Shown one piece after another: positions 3,859 to 17,300 of a DNA stretch of 64,000 bases (the first letter of the stretch is position 1; each line of letters starts with the position of its first letter). The translations under genes and the position numbers were made by a program. The notes below the pieces were generated by a model. It was not told the origin of the DNA, did not search any database, and saw only the letters and a list, made by a program, of their open reading frames with translations. Source of the stretch: Escherichia phage BYEP01; sequence record OR757453.1; one strand, 5' to 3'.

Positions 3859-4776
3859 ATGGATTTAGAAATGATGCTGGATGAAGATTACAAAGAAGGA
3901 ATCTGCTTAATTGACTTTAGTCAAATTGCGCTTTCAACTGCTCTGGTAAACTTCCCAGATAAAGAAAAAATTAATTTATCAATGGTTCGTCATTTGATAT
4001 TGAACTCAATTAAGTTTAATGTCAAAAAAGCAAAAACTCTTGGATACACTAAGATTGTATTGTGTATTGATAACGCGAAATCTGGATACTGGCGTCGTGA
4101 TTTCGCTTATTATTATAAGAAAAACCGTGGAAAAGCACGAGAAGAATCTACTTGGGACTGGGAAGGTTATTTTGAATCCAGTCATAAAGTTATAGATGAA
4201 TTGAAAGCTTATATGCCATACATTGTTATGGATATTGATAAGTATGAAGCAGATGACCATATTGCCGTGCTTGTTAAAAAGTTCTCCTTAGAAGGACATA
4301 AAATTTTAATCATTTCATCGGATGGTGACTTTACTCAACTTCACAAATATCCAAATGTTAAGCAATGGTCACCGATGCACAAGAAATGGGTTAAAATTAA
4401 AAGCGGTTCTGCTGAAATTGACTGTATGACTAAAATCCTTAAAGGCGACAAAAAGGATAACGTTGCTTCAGTTAAAGTACGATCTGACTTTTGGTTTACC
4501 AGAGTTGAAGGTGAACGAACTCCTTCAATGAAAACCTCTATTGTTGAAGCTATTGCTAATGACCGCGAGCAAGCTAAGGTGCTTCTCACTGAATCTGAAT
4601 ATAATCGATATAAAGAAAATTTAGTTCTAATTGATTTTGATTATATTCCTGATAATATTGCTTCAAACATTGTGAATTACTATAATTCATATAAATTACC
4701 ACCGCGTGGCAAAATTTATTCATATTTTGTAAAAGCGGGTCTTTCTAAATTAACTAATAGCATTAACGAATTTTGA
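3859..4776 (+). CDS. rnh: RNase H / 5'-3' exonuclease (305 aa)
   Basis: ORF-track 3844..4776 begins at TTG; internal ATG at 3859 gives MDLEMMLDEDYKEGICLIDFSQ..., recognised as T4 RNase H. Confidence 0.95.
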   Translation: MDLEMMLDEDYKEGICLIDFSQIALSTALVNFPDKEKINLSMVRHLILNSIKFNVKKAKTLGYTKIVLCIDNAKSGYWRRDFAYYYKKNRGKAREESTWDWEGYFESSHKVIDELKAYMPYIVMDIDKYEADDHIAVLVKKFSLEGHKILIISSDGDFTQLHKYPNVKQWSPMHKKWVKIKSGSAEIDCMTKILKGDKKDNVASVKVRSDFWFTRVEGERTPSMKTSIVEAIANDREQAKVLLTESEYNRYKENLVLIDFDYIPDNIASNIVNYYNSYKLPPRGKIYSYFVKAGLSKLTNSINEF

Positions 4777-4784
4777 GGTGAATA

Positions 4785-5054
4785 ATGGCTAAAAAAGAAA
4801 TGGTTGAATTTGATGAAGCTATCCACGGCGAAGATTTAGCTAAATTTATTAAAGAAGCATCTGACCATAAACTGAAAATTTCTGGTTATAATGAATTGAT
4901 TAAAGATATTCGAATTCGTGCCAAAGATGAACTTGGTGTTGATGGCAAGATGTTTAATCGTTTGTTAGCTTTGTATCATAAAGATAACCGTGATGTGTTT
5001 GAAGCTGAAACTGAAGAGGTAGTTGAACTTTATGACACAGTTTTCTCTAAATGA
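4785..5054 (+). CDS. dsbA: dsDNA-binding protein DsbA (89 aa)
   Basis: MAKKEMVEFDEAIHGEDLAKFIKEASDHKLK... recognised as T4 DsbA; RBS GAGGTG upstream. Confidence 0.9.
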   Translation: MAKKEMVEFDEAIHGEDLAKFIKEASDHKLKISGYNELIKDIRIRAKDELGVDGKMFNRLLALYHKDNRDVFEAETEEVVELYDTVFSK

Positions 5055-5370
5055 TATTCGTCCGGTCGATGAGACCGGTCTTTCAGAAAAAGAACTTTCA
5101 ATTAAGAAAGAAAAGGATGAAATAGCAAAACTTCTTGACCGCCAAGAAAATGGATTTATTATTGAAAAAATGGTAGAAGAGTTTGGAATGAGTTATCTTG
5201 AAGCTACAACAGCATTCTTAGAAGAAAATTCTATTCCTGAAACTCAATTTGCTAAATTTATTCCTTCAGGTATAATTGAAAAAATTCAGTCAGAAGCTAT
5301 TGACGAAAATCTTTTACGTCCTTCTGTTGTTCGTTGTGAAAAAACTAATACATTAGATTTTCTACTATGA
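5032..5370 (+). CDS. 33: late transcription accessory protein gp33 (112 aa)
   Basis: Track ORF 5023..5370 starts at TTG; ATG at 5032 gives MTQFSLNDIRPVDETGLSEKEL..., recognised as T4 gp33; overlaps dsbA 3' end. Confidence 0.9.
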   Translation: MTQFSLNDIRPVDETGLSEKELSIKKEKDEIAKLLDRQENGFIIEKMVEEFGMSYLEATTAFLEENSIPETQFAKFIPSGIIEKIQSEAIDENLLRPSVVRCEKTNTLDFLL

Positions 5371-6020
5371 TTAAACTCCGCATGCCTGCTGGTGGTGAAA
5401 GATACATTGATGGTAAATCAGTTTATAAATTATACTTAATGATAAAACAACATATGAATGGAAAGTATGATGTAATTAAGTATAATTGGTGCATGCGGGT
5501 GTCTGATGCCGCTTATCAAAAGCGAAGGGATAAGTATTTTTTCCAGAAGTTATCAGAAAAATATAAATTAAAGGAACTTGCTTTAATCTTTATAAGCAAT
5601 CTTGTTGCTAACCAAGATGCTTGGATTGGTGACATCTCTGACGCTGATGCACTTGTGTTTTATCGTGAATATATCGGACGCTTAAAGCAAATTAAATTTA
5701 AGTTTGAAGAAGATATTCGCAACATTTATTATTTTAGTAAAAAAGTTGAAGTTTCTGCTTTTAAAGAAATTTTTGAATATAATCCAAAAGTTCAATCAAG
5801 TTATATTTTTAAACTACTTCAATCGAATATAATTTCGTTTGAGACGTTTATCTTGCTTGATTCGTTTTTAAATATAATTGATAAACATGATGAACAGACT
5901 GATAATTTAGTCTGGAATAATTATTCTATAAAGTTAAAAGCTTATAGAAAAATTTTAAATATTGATTCACAGAAAGCTAAAAGTGTTTTTATTGAAACTG
6001 TGAAATCTTGTAAGTACTAA
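5367..6020 (+). CDS. 59: helicase loader gp59 (217 aa)
   Basis: MIKLRMPAGGERYIDGKSVYKLYLMIKQHMNGKYDVIKYNW... recognised as T4 gp59; ATGA overlap with gene 33 stop. Confidence 0.95.
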   Translation: MIKLRMPAGGERYIDGKSVYKLYLMIKQHMNGKYDVIKYNWCMRVSDAAYQKRRDKYFFQKLSEKYKLKELALIFISNLVANQDAWIGDISDADALVFYREYIGRLKQIKFKFEEDIRNIYYFSKKVEVSAFKEIFEYNPKVQSSYIFKLLQSNIISFETFILLDSFLNIIDKHDEQTDNLVWNNYSIKLKAYRKILNIDSQKAKSVFIETVKSCKY

Positions 6021-8269: not shown

Positions 8270-9298
<1,029 letters not shown>

Positions 9299-9299
<1 letters not shown>

Positions 9300-9847
9300 T
9301 GAAACAATACCAATTTTTAATTAAAGATATCCTGGAAAATGGCTATGAAACTGATGATCGAACAGGCACAGGAACAATTGCTCTGTTCGGTACTAAATTA
9401 CGCTGGGATTTAACTAAAGGTTTTCCTGCAGTAACGACTAAGAAGCTCGCCTGGAAAGCTTGTATTGCTGAGCTCCTTTGGTTTTTATCAGGAAGTACTA
9501 ACGTAAATGATTTACGATTAATTCAGCATAATTCATTAATTCAAGGTAAAACAGTCTGGGATGAAAATTACGAAAACCAAGCAAAAGATTTAGGATATCA
9601 TAGTGGTGAACTTGGTCCAATTTATGGAAAACAATGGCGTGATTTTGGTGGTGTAGATCAAATTGTAGAAGTTATTGATCGTATTAAAAAACTACCAAAT
9701 GATAGGCGTCAAATCGTTTCAGCATGGAATCCAGCTGAACTTAAATATATGGCATTACCGCCCTGTCATATGTTCTATCAGTTTAATGTGCGTAATGGTT
9801 ATCTTGACCTTCAGTGGTATCAACGATCAGTAGATGTTTTCTTGGGT
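9299..9847 (+). CDS. td: thymidylate synthase, exon 1 (183 codons)
   Basis: Track ORF 9287..9850 starts at TTG; ATG 9299 gives MKQYQFLIKDILENGYETDDRTGTGTIALFG...QRSVDVFLG, recognised as T4 Td exon 1; TAA at 9848-9850 is the first intron triplet. Confidence 0.93.
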
Positions 9848-10110
9848 TAATTGAGGCCTGAGTATAAGGTGACTTATACTTGTAATCTATCTAAACGGGG
9901 GACCTCTCTAGTAGACAATCCCGTGCTAAATGTGTAGGACTTTGGTTCTACCTAAATGCCTAACGACTATCCCTTTAGGGAGTAGGGTCAAGTGACTCGA
10001 AACGATAGACATCTTGCTTCATCAAGATGGAGATATAGTCTGATCTGTATGGTGACATGCAGCTGGATATAATTCCGGGATAAGATTAACGACCTTATCT
10101 GAACATAATG
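9848..10110 (+). ncRNA. group I self-splicing intron in td, ORF-less (263 nt; no I-TevI reading frame)
   Basis: Starts TAATTGAGGCCTGAGTATAAGGTGAC..., ends ...GAACATAATG; contains GGGTCAAGTGACTCGAAACGATAGAC and GAGATATAGTCTG core elements recalled from the T4 td intron; flanking exons join into one TS frame. Confidence 0.85.
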
Positions 10111-10422
10111 CTTCCATTTAATATTGCATCATATGCTGCATTAGTTCATATTGTAGCTAAGATGTGTAATCTTATTCCAGGAGATTTGATATTTTCTGGC
10201 GGTAATACTCATATCTATATGAATCACGTAGAACAATGTAAAGAAATTTTGCGTCGTGAACCTAAAGAGCTTTGTGAACTGGTAATAGGCGGATTGCCTT
10301 ATAAATTCCGCTATCTTTCTACTAAAGAACAATTGGAATATGTTCTTAAACTCAGGCCTAAAGATTTCGTTCTTAAAGGTTACGAATCACACCCTCCTAT
10401 TAAAGGAAAAATGGCGGTGTAA
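10111..10422 (+). CDS. td: thymidylate synthase, exon 2 (103 codons)
   Basis: LPFNIASYAALVHIVAKMCNLIPGDLIFSGGNTHIYMNHVEQCKEILRREPKEL... continues Td; the track ATG at 10108 is the last three intron nt. Confidence 0.93.
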   Translation, partial: LPFNIASYAALVHIVAKMCNLIPGDLIFSGGNTHIYMNHVEQCKEILRREPKELCELVIGGLPYKFRYLSTKEQLEYVLKLRPKDFVLKGYESHPPIKGKMAV

Positions 10423-10445
10423 TTAATTATTAATTGTGAGGATAT

Positions 10446-10709
10446 ATGATTTTACGATTTAAGGATACTTCTGGCGTCGTTCTTTTTACACTTCCTAATC
10501 CAAGTGAGTTAGAAGTTCCAGGACCAGAACAGCCTATTATTATTTATGGCAAAAAATATTATACTCATAAAATGACTCGTGAGTATTTTGATAATAAAAT
10601 TTCCACAGTTAAAACTTCTTCTGATTGTTATTATGATATTACTGTTTTAACGGAAAAACAATATGACGAACTATTACCGCGCGGGCCGTCTATGCCGGGT
10701 AGTGAATAA
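10446..10709 (+). CDS. hypothetical protein (87 aa; nrdA.2-position ORF between td and nrdA)
   Basis: GTGAGG RBS then ATG; [39 protein letters not shown]... Confidence 0.55.
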
Positions 10710-10989
10710 ATATAAATCCGACTTTGATGTTAATATTCACCGTGGTACATTTTGGGGAAATTACGTCGGTAAAGATGCTGGCAGCCGGGAGGCTGCCATT
10801 GAATTATTCAAAAAAGATTTTATACGTCGAATTAAATCCGGAGAAATAACTAAAGCACATTTAGAGCCTTTACGTGGAATGAGGCTAGGATGCACATGTA
10901 AACCAAAGCCGTGTCATGGTGATATAATAGCTCATATAGTTAACCGATTGTTTAAAGACGATTTTCAAGTTGAGGACTTATGCAATTAA
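10663..10989 (+). CDS. hypothetical protein (108 aa; nrdA.1-position) with DUF4326-like CxC...CHGD motif
   Basis: ...[26 protein letters not shown]...[19 protein letters not shown]; overlaps previous ORF by 47 nt and nrdA start by 10 nt. Confidence 0.6.
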
Positions 10990-12413
10990 TTAATGTTATC
11001 AAAAGTAGTGGTGTTTCTCAGAGCTTTGACCCACAAAAAATTATTAAAGTTTTATCTTGGGCAGCTGAAGGAACATCTGTAGATCCTTATGAATTATATG
11101 AAAATATTAAATCATATCTCCGTGATGGAATGACCACTGATGACATTCAGACTATTGTCATTAAGGCTGCTGCGAATTCTATTTCGGTTGAAGAGCCTGA
11201 TTATCAATATGTAGCTGCACGCTGTTTAATGTTTGCTCTTCGTAAGCATGTTTACGGGCAATATGAACCACGTTCATTTATTGACCATATTTCTTACTGC
11301 GTAAATGAAGGTAAATATGACCCTGAATTGTTGTCAAAATATTCAGCAGAAGAAATTACATTTTTAGAATCAAAAATTAAGCACGAGCGGGATATGGAAT
11401 TTACTTATTCCGGGGCGATGCAATTAAAAGAAAAATATCTAGTTAAAGATAAAACCACTGGTCAAATTTATGAAACTCCACAGTTTGCATTTATGGCTAT
11501 TGGAATGGCACTGCATCAAGATGAACCTGTTGATAGATTAAAACATGTCATTCGTTTTTATGAAGCAGTATCTACTCGACAGATTTCATTGCCAACTCCT
11601 ATTATGGCTGGTTGTCGTACTCCAACTCGACAGTTTAGTTCATGCGTTGTTATTGAAGCAGGTGATTCGCTGAAGTCTATCAATAAGGCTTCTGCTTCAA
11701 TTGTTGAGTATATTTCTAAACGAGCTGGAATTGGCATTAACGTTGGTATGATTCGTGCCGAAGGTTCTAAGATTAGCACAGGTGAAGTGCGTCATACTGG
11801 TGTTATTCCTTTTTGGAAACATTTTCAGACTGCAGTTAAATCATGCTCACAGGGTGGAATTCGTGGCGGCGCTGCTACTGCTTATTATCCTATTTGGCAT
11901 TTGGAAGTTGAAAATCTTCTCGTTTTGAAAAATAACAAAGGCGTAGAAGAAAACCGTATTCGTCATATGGATTATGGCGTCCAGCTGAATGATTTGATGA
12001 TGGAACGTTTTGGAAAGAACGACTACATTACTTTGTTCAGTCCACATGAAATGGGTGGTGAGCTTTATTATTCTTATTTTAAAGACCAAGACCGTTTCCG
12101 TGAATTATATGAAGCCGCAGAAAAAGACCCTAATATTCGTAAAAAGCGTATTAAAGCCCGTGAACTGTTTGAATTGCTCATGACTGAACGATCAGGAACA
12201 GCAAGGATTTATGTACAGTTCATAGATAATACGAATAACTATACTCCGTTTATTCGTGAAAAGGCACCTATTCGTCAGAGCAACTTGTGTTGTGAAATTG
12301 CTATTCCAACAAATGATGTGAATAGTCAACAAACCCGTTTAATCAAAATTAAGAAGTCGGATGTAGCTAAGTTTTATGAAGCTAATCCTGGCGGTATAAT
12401 TCAAAGCAAATAA
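10980..12413 (+). CDS. nrdA: ribonucleotide reductase large subunit NrdA, N-terminal fragment (477 aa; about 449 NrdA residues plus 28-aa unrelated tail)
   Basis: [31 protein letters not shown]...RQSNLCCEIAIPTNDVNS then QQTRLIKIKKSDVAKFYEANPGGIIQSK-stop; class I RNR alpha homology up to the NLCxEI active-site motif. Confidence 0.9.
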   Translation: MQLINVIKSSGVSQSFDPQKIIKVLSWAAEGTSVDPYELYENIKSYLRDGMTTDDIQTIVIKAAANSISVEEPDYQYVAARCLMFALRKHVYGQYEPRSFIDHISYCVNEGKYDPELLSKYSAEEITFLESKIKHERDMEFTYSGAMQLKEKYLVKDKTTGQIYETPQFAFMAIGMALHQDEPVDRLKHVIRFYEAVSTRQISLPTPIMAGCRTPTRQFSSCVVIEAGDSLKSINKASASIVEYISKRAGIGINVGMIRAEGSKISTGEVRHTGVIPFWKHFQTAVKSCSQGGIRGGAATAYYPIWHLEVENLLVLKNNKGVEENRIRHMDYGVQLNDLMMERFGKNDYITLFSPHEMGGELYYSYFKDQDRFRELYEAAEKDPNIRKKRIKARELFELLMTERSGTARIYVQFIDNTNNYTPFIREKAPIRQSNLCCEIAIPTNDVNSQQTRLIKIKKSDVAKFYEANPGGIIQSK

Positions 12414-12461
12414 AGTACACAGACCGTTAATAATAAATAATCCATAACAAGAGGAAAAGTT

Positions 12462-13172
12462 ATGGATTATTCTAAAATTTACAATAACCTTATTTCTAAA
12501 GCTAAGAATAGAAAATTAGATTGCTATACCGAATCACACCATATTATACCTCTGTGTATTGGCGGTTCTGATACAAAAGAAAACCTGGTAGATTTGACAC
12601 CAGAAGAGCATTACATAGCTCATCAATTATTAGTAAAGATATATCCAGATAATCATAAATTGATATTTGCCGCTAATATGATGTGTGTTTATTCTGAAGA
12701 TAATATTGAACGAAAGAACACCAATAAACGTCATGGGTGGCTTAGAAGAAAATTGGCTATTTCTGTATCTGAAAATAATAAAGGCAAACCGGCTTGGAAC
12801 AAAGGTATTCCTATGTCTCCAGAAGTTAAATCTCGACTTCAAACATCTTGGGTGTTTACATTTCCGGATGGTCATGAGGAAATTCATCGAGGTCTTAACG
12901 AATTTTGTAAAGAGCATAATTTAAATGCATCTGCGATGTCAGCCGTTTGTAAAGGTAAACGGGCGCATCACAAAGGATTTAAGTGTAAGAAATTGGATAA
13001 GATTTCAGAGCTTGATAATTTAGTTTTCGTCAGTAAACCTCATCCAAAGGGATTAAAACCCCATAACTTAATTGCTGTAAAAATAAACGGTATAGAATAT
13101 CAATCAATACATCGAGCATCTAAAGCTTTAGGAATTACTAGAAAAAAGGTAGAAGAATTAAATGAATATTGA
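12462..13172 (+). CDS. HNH homing endonuclease (Mob-like, 236 aa) inserted within nrdA
   Basis: GAGGA RBS then ATG; MDYSKIYNNLISKAKNRKLDCYTESHHIIPLCIGGSDTKENLVDLTPEEHYIAHQLL = HNH motif; paralogous to ORFs 39813..40505 and 58945..59757. Confidence 0.85.
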   Translation: MDYSKIYNNLISKAKNRKLDCYTESHHIIPLCIGGSDTKENLVDLTPEEHYIAHQLLVKIYPDNHKLIFAANMMCVYSEDNIERKNTNKRHGWLRRKLAISVSENNKGKPAWNKGIPMSPEVKSRLQTSWVFTFPDGHEEIHRGLNEFCKEHNLNASAMSAVCKGKRAHHKGFKCKKLDKISELDNLVFVSKPHPKGLKPHNLIAVKINGIEYQSIHRASKALGITRKKVEELNEY

Positions 13173-14151
13173 TTATGAATTTGTAGATGAATTTTACGAA
13201 GATGATGAGTATACTACAATAGAAGTTATTGAAAACAGGGGAGAAGTGGGGCTTTGTACCCTTAGCGCATTTGTGTTGGATAACTTCGATTGGCAAGACC
13301 AAGACAAAATTAATGAATTAGCAGAAGTTCAAGTTCGTGCTCTTGATAATCTTTTGGACTACCAAGGATATCCAGTTCCTGAAGCAGAAAAAGCTAAAAA
13401 GCGTCGAAACCTTGGCGTAGGTGTTACTAACTATGCAGCTTGGCTGGCAAGTAACTTTGCTTCTTATGAAGATGCTAACGATTTAACACATGAACTATTT
13501 GAGAGATTGCAGTATGGACTCATTAAAGCATCCATTAAGCTCGCCAAAGAAAAAGGACCTTGCGAATATTATTCAGACACTCGTTGGTCTCGAGGCGAAT
13601 TACCTATCGACTGGTACAATAAAAAGATTGACCAAATCGCAGCTCCAAAATACGTTTGTGATTGGGACGAACTTCGATCTGAACTCAAACAGCATGGAAT
13701 TCGAAATTCTACTTTATCCGCGTTGATGCCGTGTGAATCATCCAGTCAGGTATCTAACAGTACAAACGGTATCGAGCCTCCACGTGGACCAGTCTCTGTT
13801 AAAGAATCAAAAGAGGGTTCCTTTAATCAAGTCGTGCCCAATATTGAGCATAACATAGACCTCTATGATTATACGTGGAAATTAGCTAAGAAAGGTAATA
13901 AACCTTATCTTACGCAGGTAGCTATTATGCTGAAATGGGTATGTCAATCAGCTTCAGCGAATACATATTATGACCCGCAGATTTTTCCAAAAGGAAAGGT
14001 TCCAATGTCTGTAATGATTGATGACATGCTATACGGATGGTATTATGGCATTAAAAACTTCTATTATCATAATACCCGTGATGGTTCTGGTACTGATGAT
14101 TATGAAATAGAAACTCCCAAAGCTGAAGATTGTTCATCCTGTAAATTATGA
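13162..14151 (+). CDS. nrdA: ribonucleotide reductase large subunit NrdA, C-terminal fragment (329 aa; 26-aa novel leader then NrdA from GEVGLCTLSAF)
   Basis: MNIDYEFVDEFYEDDEYTTIEVIENR-GEVGLCTLSAFVLDNFDW...NSTLSALMPCESSSQVSNSTNGIEPPRG...YYHNTRDGSG...CSSCKL matches class I RNR alpha C-terminal half; ATG lies within last codons of the HNH ORF. Confidence 0.9.
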   Translation: MNIDYEFVDEFYEDDEYTTIEVIENRGEVGLCTLSAFVLDNFDWQDQDKINELAEVQVRALDNLLDYQGYPVPEAEKAKKRRNLGVGVTNYAAWLASNFASYEDANDLTHELFERLQYGLIKASIKLAKEKGPCEYYSDTRWSRGELPIDWYNKKIDQIAAPKYVCDWDELRSELKQHGIRNSTLSALMPCESSSQVSNSTNGIEPPRGPVSVKESKEGSFNQVVPNIEHNIDLYDYTWKLAKKGNKPYLTQVAIMLKWVCQSASANTYYDPQIFPKGKVPMSVMIDDMLYGWYYGIKNFYYHNTRDGSGTDDYEIETPKAEDCSSCKL

Positions 14152-14202
14152 TATAATTTGACTCATGGACGAGTCACCAACTATTAACTAAGTGGAAAAT
14201 TT

Positions 14203-14878
14203 ATGAGCACAGTTTTTAATACAAATCCAGTTGATGTTTTAACAGAACCTATGTTCTTCGGTTCAGGTCTTGGAATTGCACGTTATGATATTCAACGACA
14301 TAAGGTATTTGAAGAACTTATTGAACGTTCGCTCTCGTTTTTCTGGCGGCCTGAAGAAGTAAACTTAATGATGGATGCTGCACAATTTAACAAGCTCCCA
14401 GAACACCAAAAATCTATATTTATCAATAACTTAAAATACCAGTCATTGTTAGACTCCATCCAGGGGCGTGCACCATCTGCGGTACTTATGCCATTGCTTT
14501 CAGATCCAAGCCTTGATACATGGGTAGCAACATGGACTTTTAGCGAAACTATTCACAGTCGTTCATATACCCATATCATGCGTAACTTGTTCAATGACCC
14601 TGCTAAGGTATTTGATGAGATTGTACTAGATGAAGCTATCATGAAACGTGCTGAATCTATCGGTCGCTATTATGATGATGTTCTGACTAAAACCCGTGAA
14701 TGGGAAAATGCTAAAGAATTTACAGAACTAGCTAAAGAATCTCCTGATGCTGTTTTTCGTTTAAATCGAGCTATTAAACAAGAAGCCGAAGCTAAACGTG
14801 CTTTAATGAAATCTCTTTACCTCTGTTTGCACGTTATTAATGCCTTAGAAGCTATTCGTTTTTATGTATCTTTTGCGT
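14203..14878 (+). CDS. nrdB: ribonucleotide reductase small subunit NrdB, exon 1
   Basis: MSTVFNTNPVDVLTEPMFFGSGLGIARYDIQRHKVFEELIERSLSFFWRPEEV...ALEAIRFYVSFA; frame interrupted by TAA at 14878-14880 at the intron boundary. Confidence 0.9.
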
Positions 14879-15182
14879 AAAATGCGCCTTTAAACGGTAA
14901 CGTTTATCGAAAACTCCTTTAATTGCTGGAAAGTCCTTTATAGGAAAACTAGCAGCCAAGGTTTTGCTTGCACCTTTAATTAGCATAATATAAATGATTA
15001 TACTTTTAAGAGGATGCACAATTGCAAAGCAAGGTTCAACGACTAGTCTTCGGACGTAGGGTCAAGCGACTCGAAATGGGGAGAATCCCTCTGGGATTGT
15101 GATATAGTCTGGTCTGCATAGTAATATGTAGCAGTTCATAAGAGAACGGGTTGAGAATTAGCGAGCTCAATCGAACATAACG
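14879..15182 (+). ncRNA. group I self-splicing intron in nrdB, ORF-less (about 304 nt; no I-TevIII remnant)
   Basis: Contains AGGGTCAAGCGACTCGAAA and GATATAGTCTG core elements shared with the td intron; ends in G; t(14878)+gt(15183-15184) reconstitutes a Cys codon giving FYVSFA-C-TFNFHKNMEIMEGNAK; exact boundaries inferred. Confidence 0.75.
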
Positions 15183-15685
15183 GTACCTTTAACTTCCATA
15201 AGAACATGGAAATCATGGAAGGTAATGCCAAGATTATGAAGTTCATTGCACGTGATGAGCAGCTTCACCTTAAAGGCACCCAATATATTATTCGTCAACT
15301 TCAATCCGGTACTGATGGCGATGAATGGGTTAAAATTGCTCAAGAGTGTGAACAAGAAGCAGTTGATATTTTCATGGAAGTTAACCGCCAAGAAAAAGAC
15401 TGGGCAGTTCATTTATTTAAAGATGGCGATGTTCCTGGATTAAATACAAATAGCATGTGGAGCTTTATTGATTACTTAACTGTATCTCGTATGAAACAGT
15501 GCGGTCTTCCATGCCCAATTACCGATGCTCCGGTTAAACATCCGTATCCTTGGATTCGTGAATACCTTAATTCTGATAATGTTCAATCCGCGCCACAAGA
15601 AGTAGAACTGTCATCTTACCTTGTTGCACAGATTGATAATGATGTTGATGATAAAGTTATGATGAGTTTTAAAAAATACTTTTAA
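15183..15685 (+). CDS. nrdB: ribonucleotide reductase small subunit NrdB, exon 2
   Basis: ...TFNFHKNMEIMEGNAKIMKFIARDEQLHLKGTQYII...SAPQEVELSSYLVAQIDNDVDDKVMMSFKKYF; RNR beta C-terminal half. Confidence 0.9.
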
Positions 15686-15690
15686 GGAGT

Positions 15691-15712
15691 GGGCCGCAAG
15701 GCCCATTTTATT
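15691..15712 (+). terminator. hairpin GGGCC-gcaa-GGCCC followed by ATTTTATT; terminator after nrdB, and/or structure placing the denA SD near its ATG
   Basis: Inverted repeat and U-rich tail read in sequence; lies between AAGGAG (15684-15689) and denA ATG (15713). Confidence 0.5.

Positions 15713-17300
<1,588 letters not shown>

Follow-up and report, generated by a model that had tools for sequence, protein, structure and literature searches.

The nrdA gene of Escherichia phage BYEP01 lies in two pieces around an HNH homing endonuclease gene in a probable Aeh1-type MobE cassette

Anatomy of the split nrdA locus

We analysed a 64,000 nucleotide stretch of the Escherichia phage BYEP01 genome (record OR757453.1), referred to here as the window, in which nrdA, encoding the large subunit NrdA of a class Ia ribonucleotide reductase (RNR), is carried as two separate open reading frames (ORFs) with a gene for an HNH homing endonuclease between them. 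The window is a Tevenvirinae (T4-like) genome segment of a coliphage, all positions are given in its own numbering and its plus strand carries in order td, nrdA.2/nrdA.1, nrdA, nrdB, denA and rnlA. The locus is made up of three ORFs whose sequences and positions agree with a preliminary description of this DNA:

10980..12413, plus strand: nrdA-a, 477 amino acids (aa), the N-terminal 449 aa of class Ia NrdA followed by a 28-aa tail
12462..13172, plus strand: mobE-like free-standing HNH homing endonuclease gene, 236 aa
13162..14151, plus strand: nrdA-b, 329 aa, a 27-aa acidic head followed by the C-terminal 302 aa of NrdA

NrdA sequence in the first ORF ends ...NLCCEIAIPTNDVNS at S449, the last codon extending to 12326; 28 additional codons (12327-12410) then lead to a stop. 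The gap between nrdA-a and mobE is 48 nt, mobE has its own ribosome binding site as previously described (GAGGA, 7 nt 5' of its ATG) and its 3' end shares 11 nt with the start of nrdA-b. Pfam searches place the ATP-cone, the all-alpha domain and the first half of the barrel in NrdA-a and divide the 523 positions of Ribonuc_red_lgC between the two products, with 1-221 in NrdA-a and 220-523 in NrdA-b. In E. coli numbering the split point lies between the strand with C439 and E441 and the strand with C462, and in the alignment with E. coli NrdA the first fragment covers residues 403-455 while the second begins at residue 452. Catalytic residues C222, C437 and E439 of NrdA-a correspond to E. coli C225, C439 and E441, with NrdA-b contributing C32 (C462), Y301/Y302 (Y730/Y731) and the C-terminal cysteine pair in CSSCKL. 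The ORFs and the Pfam division together bear out the earlier view of nrdA as a gene in pieces, with a Mob-type HNH gene placed between the NLCxEI strand and the LCTLS strand.

The site of insertion, which the preliminary description had proposed to map on close relatives, was located exactly by comparison with the closest intact nrdA, that of phage W143, whose exons are 97-98% identical to those of the window. Where W143 has 9 nt encoding PDA (CCTGATGCT), the window has 916 nt (12327..13242). The two NrdA portions had been said to sum to the size of an intact protein and this is the case, as 449 + 302 + 3 gives the intact length of 754 aa. Resumption of NrdA sequence is near the point originally proposed, although homology of the T4 type restarts at E28 (EVGLC) and not at G27. 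Similarly, only ~20 of the 26 head codons described as novel are truly unrelated, since similarity to E. coli NrdA begins at ~V22 (VIENRGE versus VNDENGE) and the last ~7 residues of the head look like the NrdA loop found in enzymes of the E. coli type. The spacer from nrdA-b to nrdB is 51 nt and contains no mobE, and nrdB downstream is intact apart from a group I intron.

An ORF inserted in this position could in principle belong to a group I or other self-splicing intron, from which a continuous NrdA would be produced after splicing. Nucleotide metabolism genes of T-even phages are classic hosts of such introns (td, nrdB, nrdD), td and nrdB of the window both contain one and removal of 12327-13242 would be in frame. 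Nevertheless, when 9000-16500 was scanned permissively with Rfam the only introns detected were those of td (64 bits) and nrdB (69 bits), with no RF00028 match in 12327-13242 at E<=1, and the sequence available for an intron core amounts to only ~135 nt 5' and 70 nt 3' of the ORF, both translated in the nrdA frames. The peptides flanking the ORF are conserved with those of Aeromonas phage Aeh1 despite different codons, and the insertion in Aeh1 nrdA is reported not to be a self-splicing intron, its two NrdA fragments co-purifying with NrdB (papers citing Friedrich 2007). We therefore regard an intron at this site as extremely improbable.

Homology with the split nrdA of phage Aeh1

The split nrdA of Aeh1 (Friedrich et al. 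2007; Crona et al. 2010, PMC3045599; Gibb & Edgell 2007, 2009) had been put forward as the precedent for this arrangement and is the right comparison. Aeh1 nrdA-A, mobE and nrdA-B encode 473, 237 and 323 aa versus 477, 236 and 329 aa in the window, the gap before mobE is 46 nt versus 48 nt, the overlap of mobE with nrdA-b is 14 nt versus 11 nt and the residue at which NrdA homology restarts is shared (E-[IV]-[GS]-L-C-T-L). In Pfam the middle ORF of the window matches the I-HmuI NUMOD-like domain (8.7e-10) and, weakly, HNH. Its product has an N-terminal HNH motif (H26, H27, N41, H50, H54), a NUMOD-like domain at 135-173 and a C-terminal region that we read as helix-turn-helix-like. Alignment with Aeh1 MobE over 227 aa gives 44% identity (E 2e-57), and none of the catalytic H/N/H residues differs between the two proteins.

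The extra peptides on the NrdA fragments are also shared with Aeh1:

12327..12410, plus strand: C-terminal tail of NrdA-a, QQTRLIKIKKSDVAKFYEANPGGIIQSK, basic (pI 10.0), homologous to the Aeh1 NrdA-a tail (…MLFKVKKSEVDKF…)
13162..13242, plus strand: N-terminal head of NrdA-b, MNIDYEFVDEFYEDDEYTTIEVIENRG, acidic (pI 4.05 for the first 26 aa), homologous to the Aeh1 NrdA-b head (…YEVYEDEEYTTVEI…)

Homology was assessed by local alignment against composition-preserving shuffles. The NrdA-a tail, aligning as QQTRLIKIKKSDVAKF... with Aeh1 ...KEKMLFKVKKSEVDKF..., scored 42 against 19.9±4.0 for the shuffled sequences (5.5 standard deviations, p ~6e-4), and the NrdA-b head, aligning as ...FYEDDEYTTIEV... 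with ...VYEDEEYTTVEI..., scored 67 against 26.6±5.2 (7.8 standard deviations, p <2e-4). Because the residues kept between the coliphage and Aeh1 tails use different codons it is the peptide and not the RNA that has been conserved. The tails of Aeh1 have pI values of 10.4 and 3.8, they are found intact by mass spectrometry on the mature proteins and their deletion lowers activity ~2000-fold, with loss of the (a/b)2 dimer and of tight NrdB binding (PMC3045599). Among the coliphage cassettes the nucleotides of the NrdA-a tail are 98.7-100% identical. Searches for further relatives of the head returned little: a degenerate DNA pattern for the motif YEDxEYTT found only Aeh1 and two chance matches in IMG/VR, the pattern EDxEYTT[IV]E gave 8 chance matches in JGI metagenome contigs with no nrdA or HNH gene near them, and the 44-aa head used as a protein query matched a single 73-aa fragment.

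These results overturn two statements of the preliminary description, namely that the peptide tails are new and that the insertion may be an event independent of Aeh1. Both tails are homologous to those of Aeh1, occupy the same site and have the same basic and acidic charge pattern. The homology of MobE, of the tails and of the resumption site therefore indicates one cassette lineage and not an independent insertion. We conclude with considerable confidence that the region is an Aeh1-type MobE genes-in-pieces cassette in nrdA. By analogy with Aeh1, we infer that the coliphage NrdA-a and NrdA-b assemble into an active reductase.

A different origin for the tails, raised as a possibility by Crona et al. 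(PMC3045599), is that they are remnants of a split intein, with the fragments trans-spliced or associating by intein-fragment affinity. Metagenomic contigs lend this some substance, as L032 and L038 have nrdA fractured by genuine split inteins ~15 codons upstream (NLC|CEI) and in L037 the break falls in the loop that is also interrupted in the window, with an N-terminal tail that is weakly intein-like (E 0.011). The absence of an intein signature noted earlier was confirmed, with no Pfam intein or Hint domain in the three ORFs and none in the isolated tails even at E<=10. Shuffle-controlled alignments moreover found the window and Aeh1 tails to be unlike both split-intein fragments and the L037 tails (p 0.2-0.87), the N-junction has no Cys/Ser/Thr, the C-junction has no preceding HN and the mature Aeh1 proteins retain their tails. 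On these sequence comparisons an intein origin of the window and Aeh1 tails appears unsupported and we rate it as very unlikely.

Predicted control of mobE expression

The short region between nrdA-a and mobE contains two overlapping candidate regulatory features:

12432..12439, plus strand: late-promoter-like box AATAAATA, a 7/8 match to the T4 late promoter TATAAATA
12436..12471, plus strand: RNA hairpin with a 13-bp perfect stem (12436-12448 / 12459-12471) and a 10-nt loop

The Shine-Dalgarno (SD) sequence GAGGA (12450-12454) lies in the loop of the hairpin and the mobE AUG (12462-12464) in its 3' arm. Folding energy is -13.8 kcal/mol (z -5.4, 0/200 shuffles). The hairpin is predicted to repress MobE translation on read-through transcripts, and a transcript starting ~6 nt downstream of the box would lose most of the 5' arm. 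A promoter-plus-hairpin design of this kind has been documented for I-TevI, I-TevII, I-TevIII, segB and Aeh1 mobE (PMC2988022). Scans of the region for sigma-70 promoters and terminators gave counts no higher than those of shuffled controls.

A recoded target copy and spread of the cassette among coliphages

Immediately downstream of the insert, the codons at which nrdA resumes differ from those of intact genes:

13243..13269, plus strand: cassette-borne recoded target copy, codons E-V-G-L-C-T-L-S-A

Compared with W143, the 24 nt for (I/V)GLCTLS carry 12 changes, of which 11 are synonymous, among them a serine TCT-to-AGC change; the binomial P at background divergence is 3e-14. The extent of the recoded stretch varies among phages, consistent with co-conversion tracts, and the stretch is comparable to the 'homologous region' of mobA (bioRxiv 10.1101/2022.08.31.505936). 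The putative MobE recognition site most likely lies within the replaced 33 nt and the recoded copy probably destroys it. The left exon of each carrier follows the sequence of its uninterrupted relative, W143 or RB69, as far as the junction. To the right of it, 20-50 nt depart from that relative's sequence and form a mosaic that varies from carrier to carrier. Taken together, the recoded stretch and the mosaic flank are the signature of a homing element carrying a recoded copy of its target.

In order to follow the distribution of the cassette we searched a phage collection, in which 843 records match the region and 32 contain the whole split arrangement at 82-96.5% identity. The HNH protein is present in 34 records from ~27 distinct phages at 89-99.6% identity, with Aeh1 the next best match at 44.5%. 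Carriers belong both to Tequatrovirus (e11/2 = vB_EcoM_112, HY01, F2, RPN226 and others) and to Mosigvirus (AV111, ZQ3), and further deposited genomes with the cassette are UFV-AREG1, fPS-2 and fPS-90. The window sequence is identical to no record, the best being 96.5%. The cassette has spread horizontally between genera. Its nucleotide identity to the window stays at 88-100% even in carriers with nrdA exons at 77-80%; in PTE-Eco05 the HNH gene is 99.0% and the NrdA-a tail 100% identical while the exons are at 77% and 80%. This contrast points to recent horizontal spread by homing.

Recombination is also visible within individual components of the locus. The carriers have two endonuclease alleles, which are ~28% apart in a 250-nt patch (12786-13036) covering the NUMOD-like DNA-binding region and ~2% apart elsewhere, and the HNH gene of phage F2 is a recombinant of both. 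We had considered whether the 100% nucleotide identity of the NrdA-a tail and intergenic region versus 88% for the HNH gene reflected extra constraint on the former, and rejected this as the HNH differences are concentrated in the one mosaic patch. In nrdA-b a second patch (13663-13740) is 55% identical to W143 and 75% to RB69 with neighbouring sequence 97-100% W143-like. The encoded peptide is DELRSELKQH in the window, ELRAELKEH in RB69 and SSLREDLKLF in W143, and the patch has the look of a short tract acquired by recombination from an nrdA of the Mosigvirus type.

Maintenance of the split gene

Insertion of the HNH gene might simply have inactivated nrdA, leaving ORFs that are decaying remnants in a phage relying on host NrdAB and its own anaerobic NrdD. 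T4 nrdA is indeed listed as an auxiliary gene, which the phage requires only when its host is nrd-defective (table quoted in PMC5931544). Decay is not what the genomes contain, however, as the 34 records, which span two genera, all have both nrdA fragments at full length, free of frameshifts and stops, and no catalytic residue has been lost. The coliphages and Aeh1 share the tails at the peptide level, the homologous Aeh1 enzyme is active (PMC3045599) and nrdB downstream is undamaged. Both cassette and exons are under purifying selection, with a dN/dS of 0.17 between the two alleles of the HNH gene and of 0.01-0.13 for the nrdA exons, the latter being like intact-versus-split comparisons. We consider inactivation unlikely and a working, divided reductase gene the better account.

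Proposed mechanism

We propose that the cassette moves as one unit from ~12327 to ~13269. In order, it would supply a basic C-tail on NrdA-a with a stop, the late-promoter-like box with its start-burying hairpin, the HNH gene, the overlapping start and acidic head of NrdA-b, and finally the synonymously recoded EIGLCTLS codons. In co-infections MobE would cut the intact nrdA of the other phage at or close to the 33 nt that are replaced in the carrier, within or near CCTGATGCTGAAATTGGATTGTGCACGTTATCT, and repair from a cassette-bearing genome would copy the whole unit together with a variable length of the downstream exon by co-conversion. The carrier itself would be immune to cutting through the recoded stretch and through the insertion. 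With C222, C437 and E439 on one chain and C32, Y301 and Y302 on the other, the oppositely charged tails would be needed for the (a/b)2 dimer that binds NrdB, as biochemically shown for Aeh1. The hairpin would hold MobE translation down on early read-through transcripts and late transcripts would release it. Cleavage, reassembly, enzyme activity and timing in the window phage all stand in this scheme as expectations carried over from homologs and predicted features. With regard to split-enzyme activity and endonuclease homing there are good grounds to infer that both take place.

Several points weigh against this scheme. Assembly, activity and nrdA cleavage in the window phage are predictions. 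Where the host supplies its own RNR, T4 can do without nrdA, so that a damaged copy might be retained for some time. Low dN/dS in the exons is weak evidence for function in the split state because much of the exon divergence is older than acquisition of the cassette. Excision of 12327-13242 would be in frame, so frame logic by itself is no bar to splicing. The late promoter is a candidate read from the sequence, with a match of only 7/8.

More speculatively, the cassette could represent a self-contained 'split-and-repair' module in which an endonuclease, antidote tails, a recoded immunity copy and expression control moved as one unit between Cinqassovirus and Tevenvirinae, such that the invaded nrdA stays functional; this is a tentative suggestion that we think more doubtful than not in its full form. 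Tails of this kind might also derive from split inteins that have degenerated, with contig L037 as an intermediate.

Other mobile elements at the td-nrdA-nrdB locus

The genes on either side of nrdA carry mobile elements of their own. An ORF-less group I intron (RF00028, 9838-10062, 64 bits) interrupts td (9287-10422; exon ORFs 9287..9850 and 10108..10422), and in related phages (e.g. e11/2) the same site has an intron with I-TevI or a fragment of it. A second ORF-less group I intron (RF00028, 14862-15131, 69 bits) lies in nrdB (14203-15685; exon ORFs 14203..14880 and 15206..15685), where other carriers of the nrdA cassette have either an endonuclease-containing intron or no intron. As the state of the nrdB intron varies among phages that have the nrdA cassette, each of the three selfish elements in td, nrdA and nrdB assorts independently of the others. 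In the carrier 236Ecol005PP an extra 792-nt gene (4713-5504 of that locus), annotated as similar to T4 DNA adenine methylase, is found between nrdA-b and nrdB. RPN226 has a GIY-YIG nuclease gene (714-1445 of its locus, minus strand) just upstream of nrdA-a in place of nrdA.1, another variable endonuclease slot beside the same operon.

When IMG/VR contigs were scanned with a MobE alignment, no other MobE that splits nrdA came to light. The split inteins of L032 (76-2501) and L038 (16-2457) are matched by Pfam Intein_splicing, and a free-standing HNH gene in the former and GIY-YIG gene in the latter lie between the nrdA halves. Both contigs have a second, T4-type mobE directly after nrdA, giving two homing endonuclease genes per nrdA locus. 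In L037 (IMGVR_UViG_3300042400_000402, 144-2444) nrdA is split by a GIY-YIG-like gene; the 44-aa tail of its N-terminal fragment matches Pfam Intein_splicing at E 0.011-0.016 and shows significant similarity (p<2e-4) to the end of the N-fragment from a split intein, and its head has no HN junction. L037 may be a degenerate split intein now working as a tail pair.

Significance

The Aeh1 arrangement was called unique and its tails were without a database match in 2010 (PMC3045599), and a survey from 2023 still cites a single known instance (PMC10448857). The coliphage arrangement itself is already public, as genomes with two NrdA coding sequences (CDS) and a MobE or homing endonuclease have been deposited since 2014, and in the literature searched we found no analysis of it. 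What is new here are the exact boundaries, the statistics of tail homology, the recoded target copy, the spread across genera and the predicted regulatory hairpin. The tails emerge as a conserved, inherited part of a mobile element and not as a one-off by-product of transposition. For annotation, two 'NrdA' CDS in such phages would by analogy with Aeh1 be a functional pair and no pseudogene. As the coliphage cassette exists beside many near-identical phages with intact nrdA it is a model tractable in E. coli, where T4 genetics can address homing into nrdA, the cut site, the requirement for the tails, their exchange with those of Aeh1 and immunity from the recoded copy.

Comparison with known systems

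The nearest relatives are the deposited coliphage cassettes, which match the region at 82-96.5% nucleotide identity and are annotated as two NrdA CDS with a homing endonuclease or MobE. A 2022 preprint mentions 'MobE_split' insertions with conserved N- and C-terminal extensions, cited as unpublished and called 'independent but similar' (bioRxiv 10.1101/2022.08.31.505936). Another known system, mobA in the T4 topoisomerase genes 39/60, likewise has a free-standing Mob-family HNH gene, out-of-frame C- and N-extensions on the split protein and a cassette-borne homologous region that replaces the target site (same preprint). It differs in its host gene and in a 50-nt translational bypass, no bypass element being present in the window cassette.

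The T4-type mobE found between nrdA and nrdB has a related N-terminal HNH nuclease domain and occupies the same operon, but it splits no gene and its C-terminal DNA-binding half is unrelated to that of the window MobE. Many IMG/VR contigs have a T4-type mobE directly after an intact nrdA, at 50-56% identity over ~108 aa. Split-intein nrdA genes (Dassa et al. 2009, PMC2677866) resemble the window in having two ORFs with a free-standing endonuclease gene between them near the active-site cysteines. They are distinguished by recognisable intein N- and C-fragments and by trans-splicing to a single polypeptide, whereas the window has no intein motifs and, judging by its homology to Aeh1, its products would stay separate.

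The closest characterised system is Aeh1, which shares with the window the same loop split, a homologous MobE, a basic C-tail and an acidic N-head, the overlap of mobE with the start of nrdA-b, nrdB downstream, and a hairpin, in the window a predicted one, that would occlude mobE translation initiation beside a late-promoter-like box. The hairpins differ in sequence and in what they hide, that of Aeh1 (-24.7 kcal/mol) burying the SD and that of the window the AUG. Aeh1 belongs to the Cinqassovirus lineage and the window to the Tevenvirinae coliphages, and the tails are only ~35-55% identical between the two. Unlike Aeh1, the window phage has close relatives in which nrdA is intact, so that the insertion, the recoded target copy and the horizontal spread of the cassette can all be mapped.

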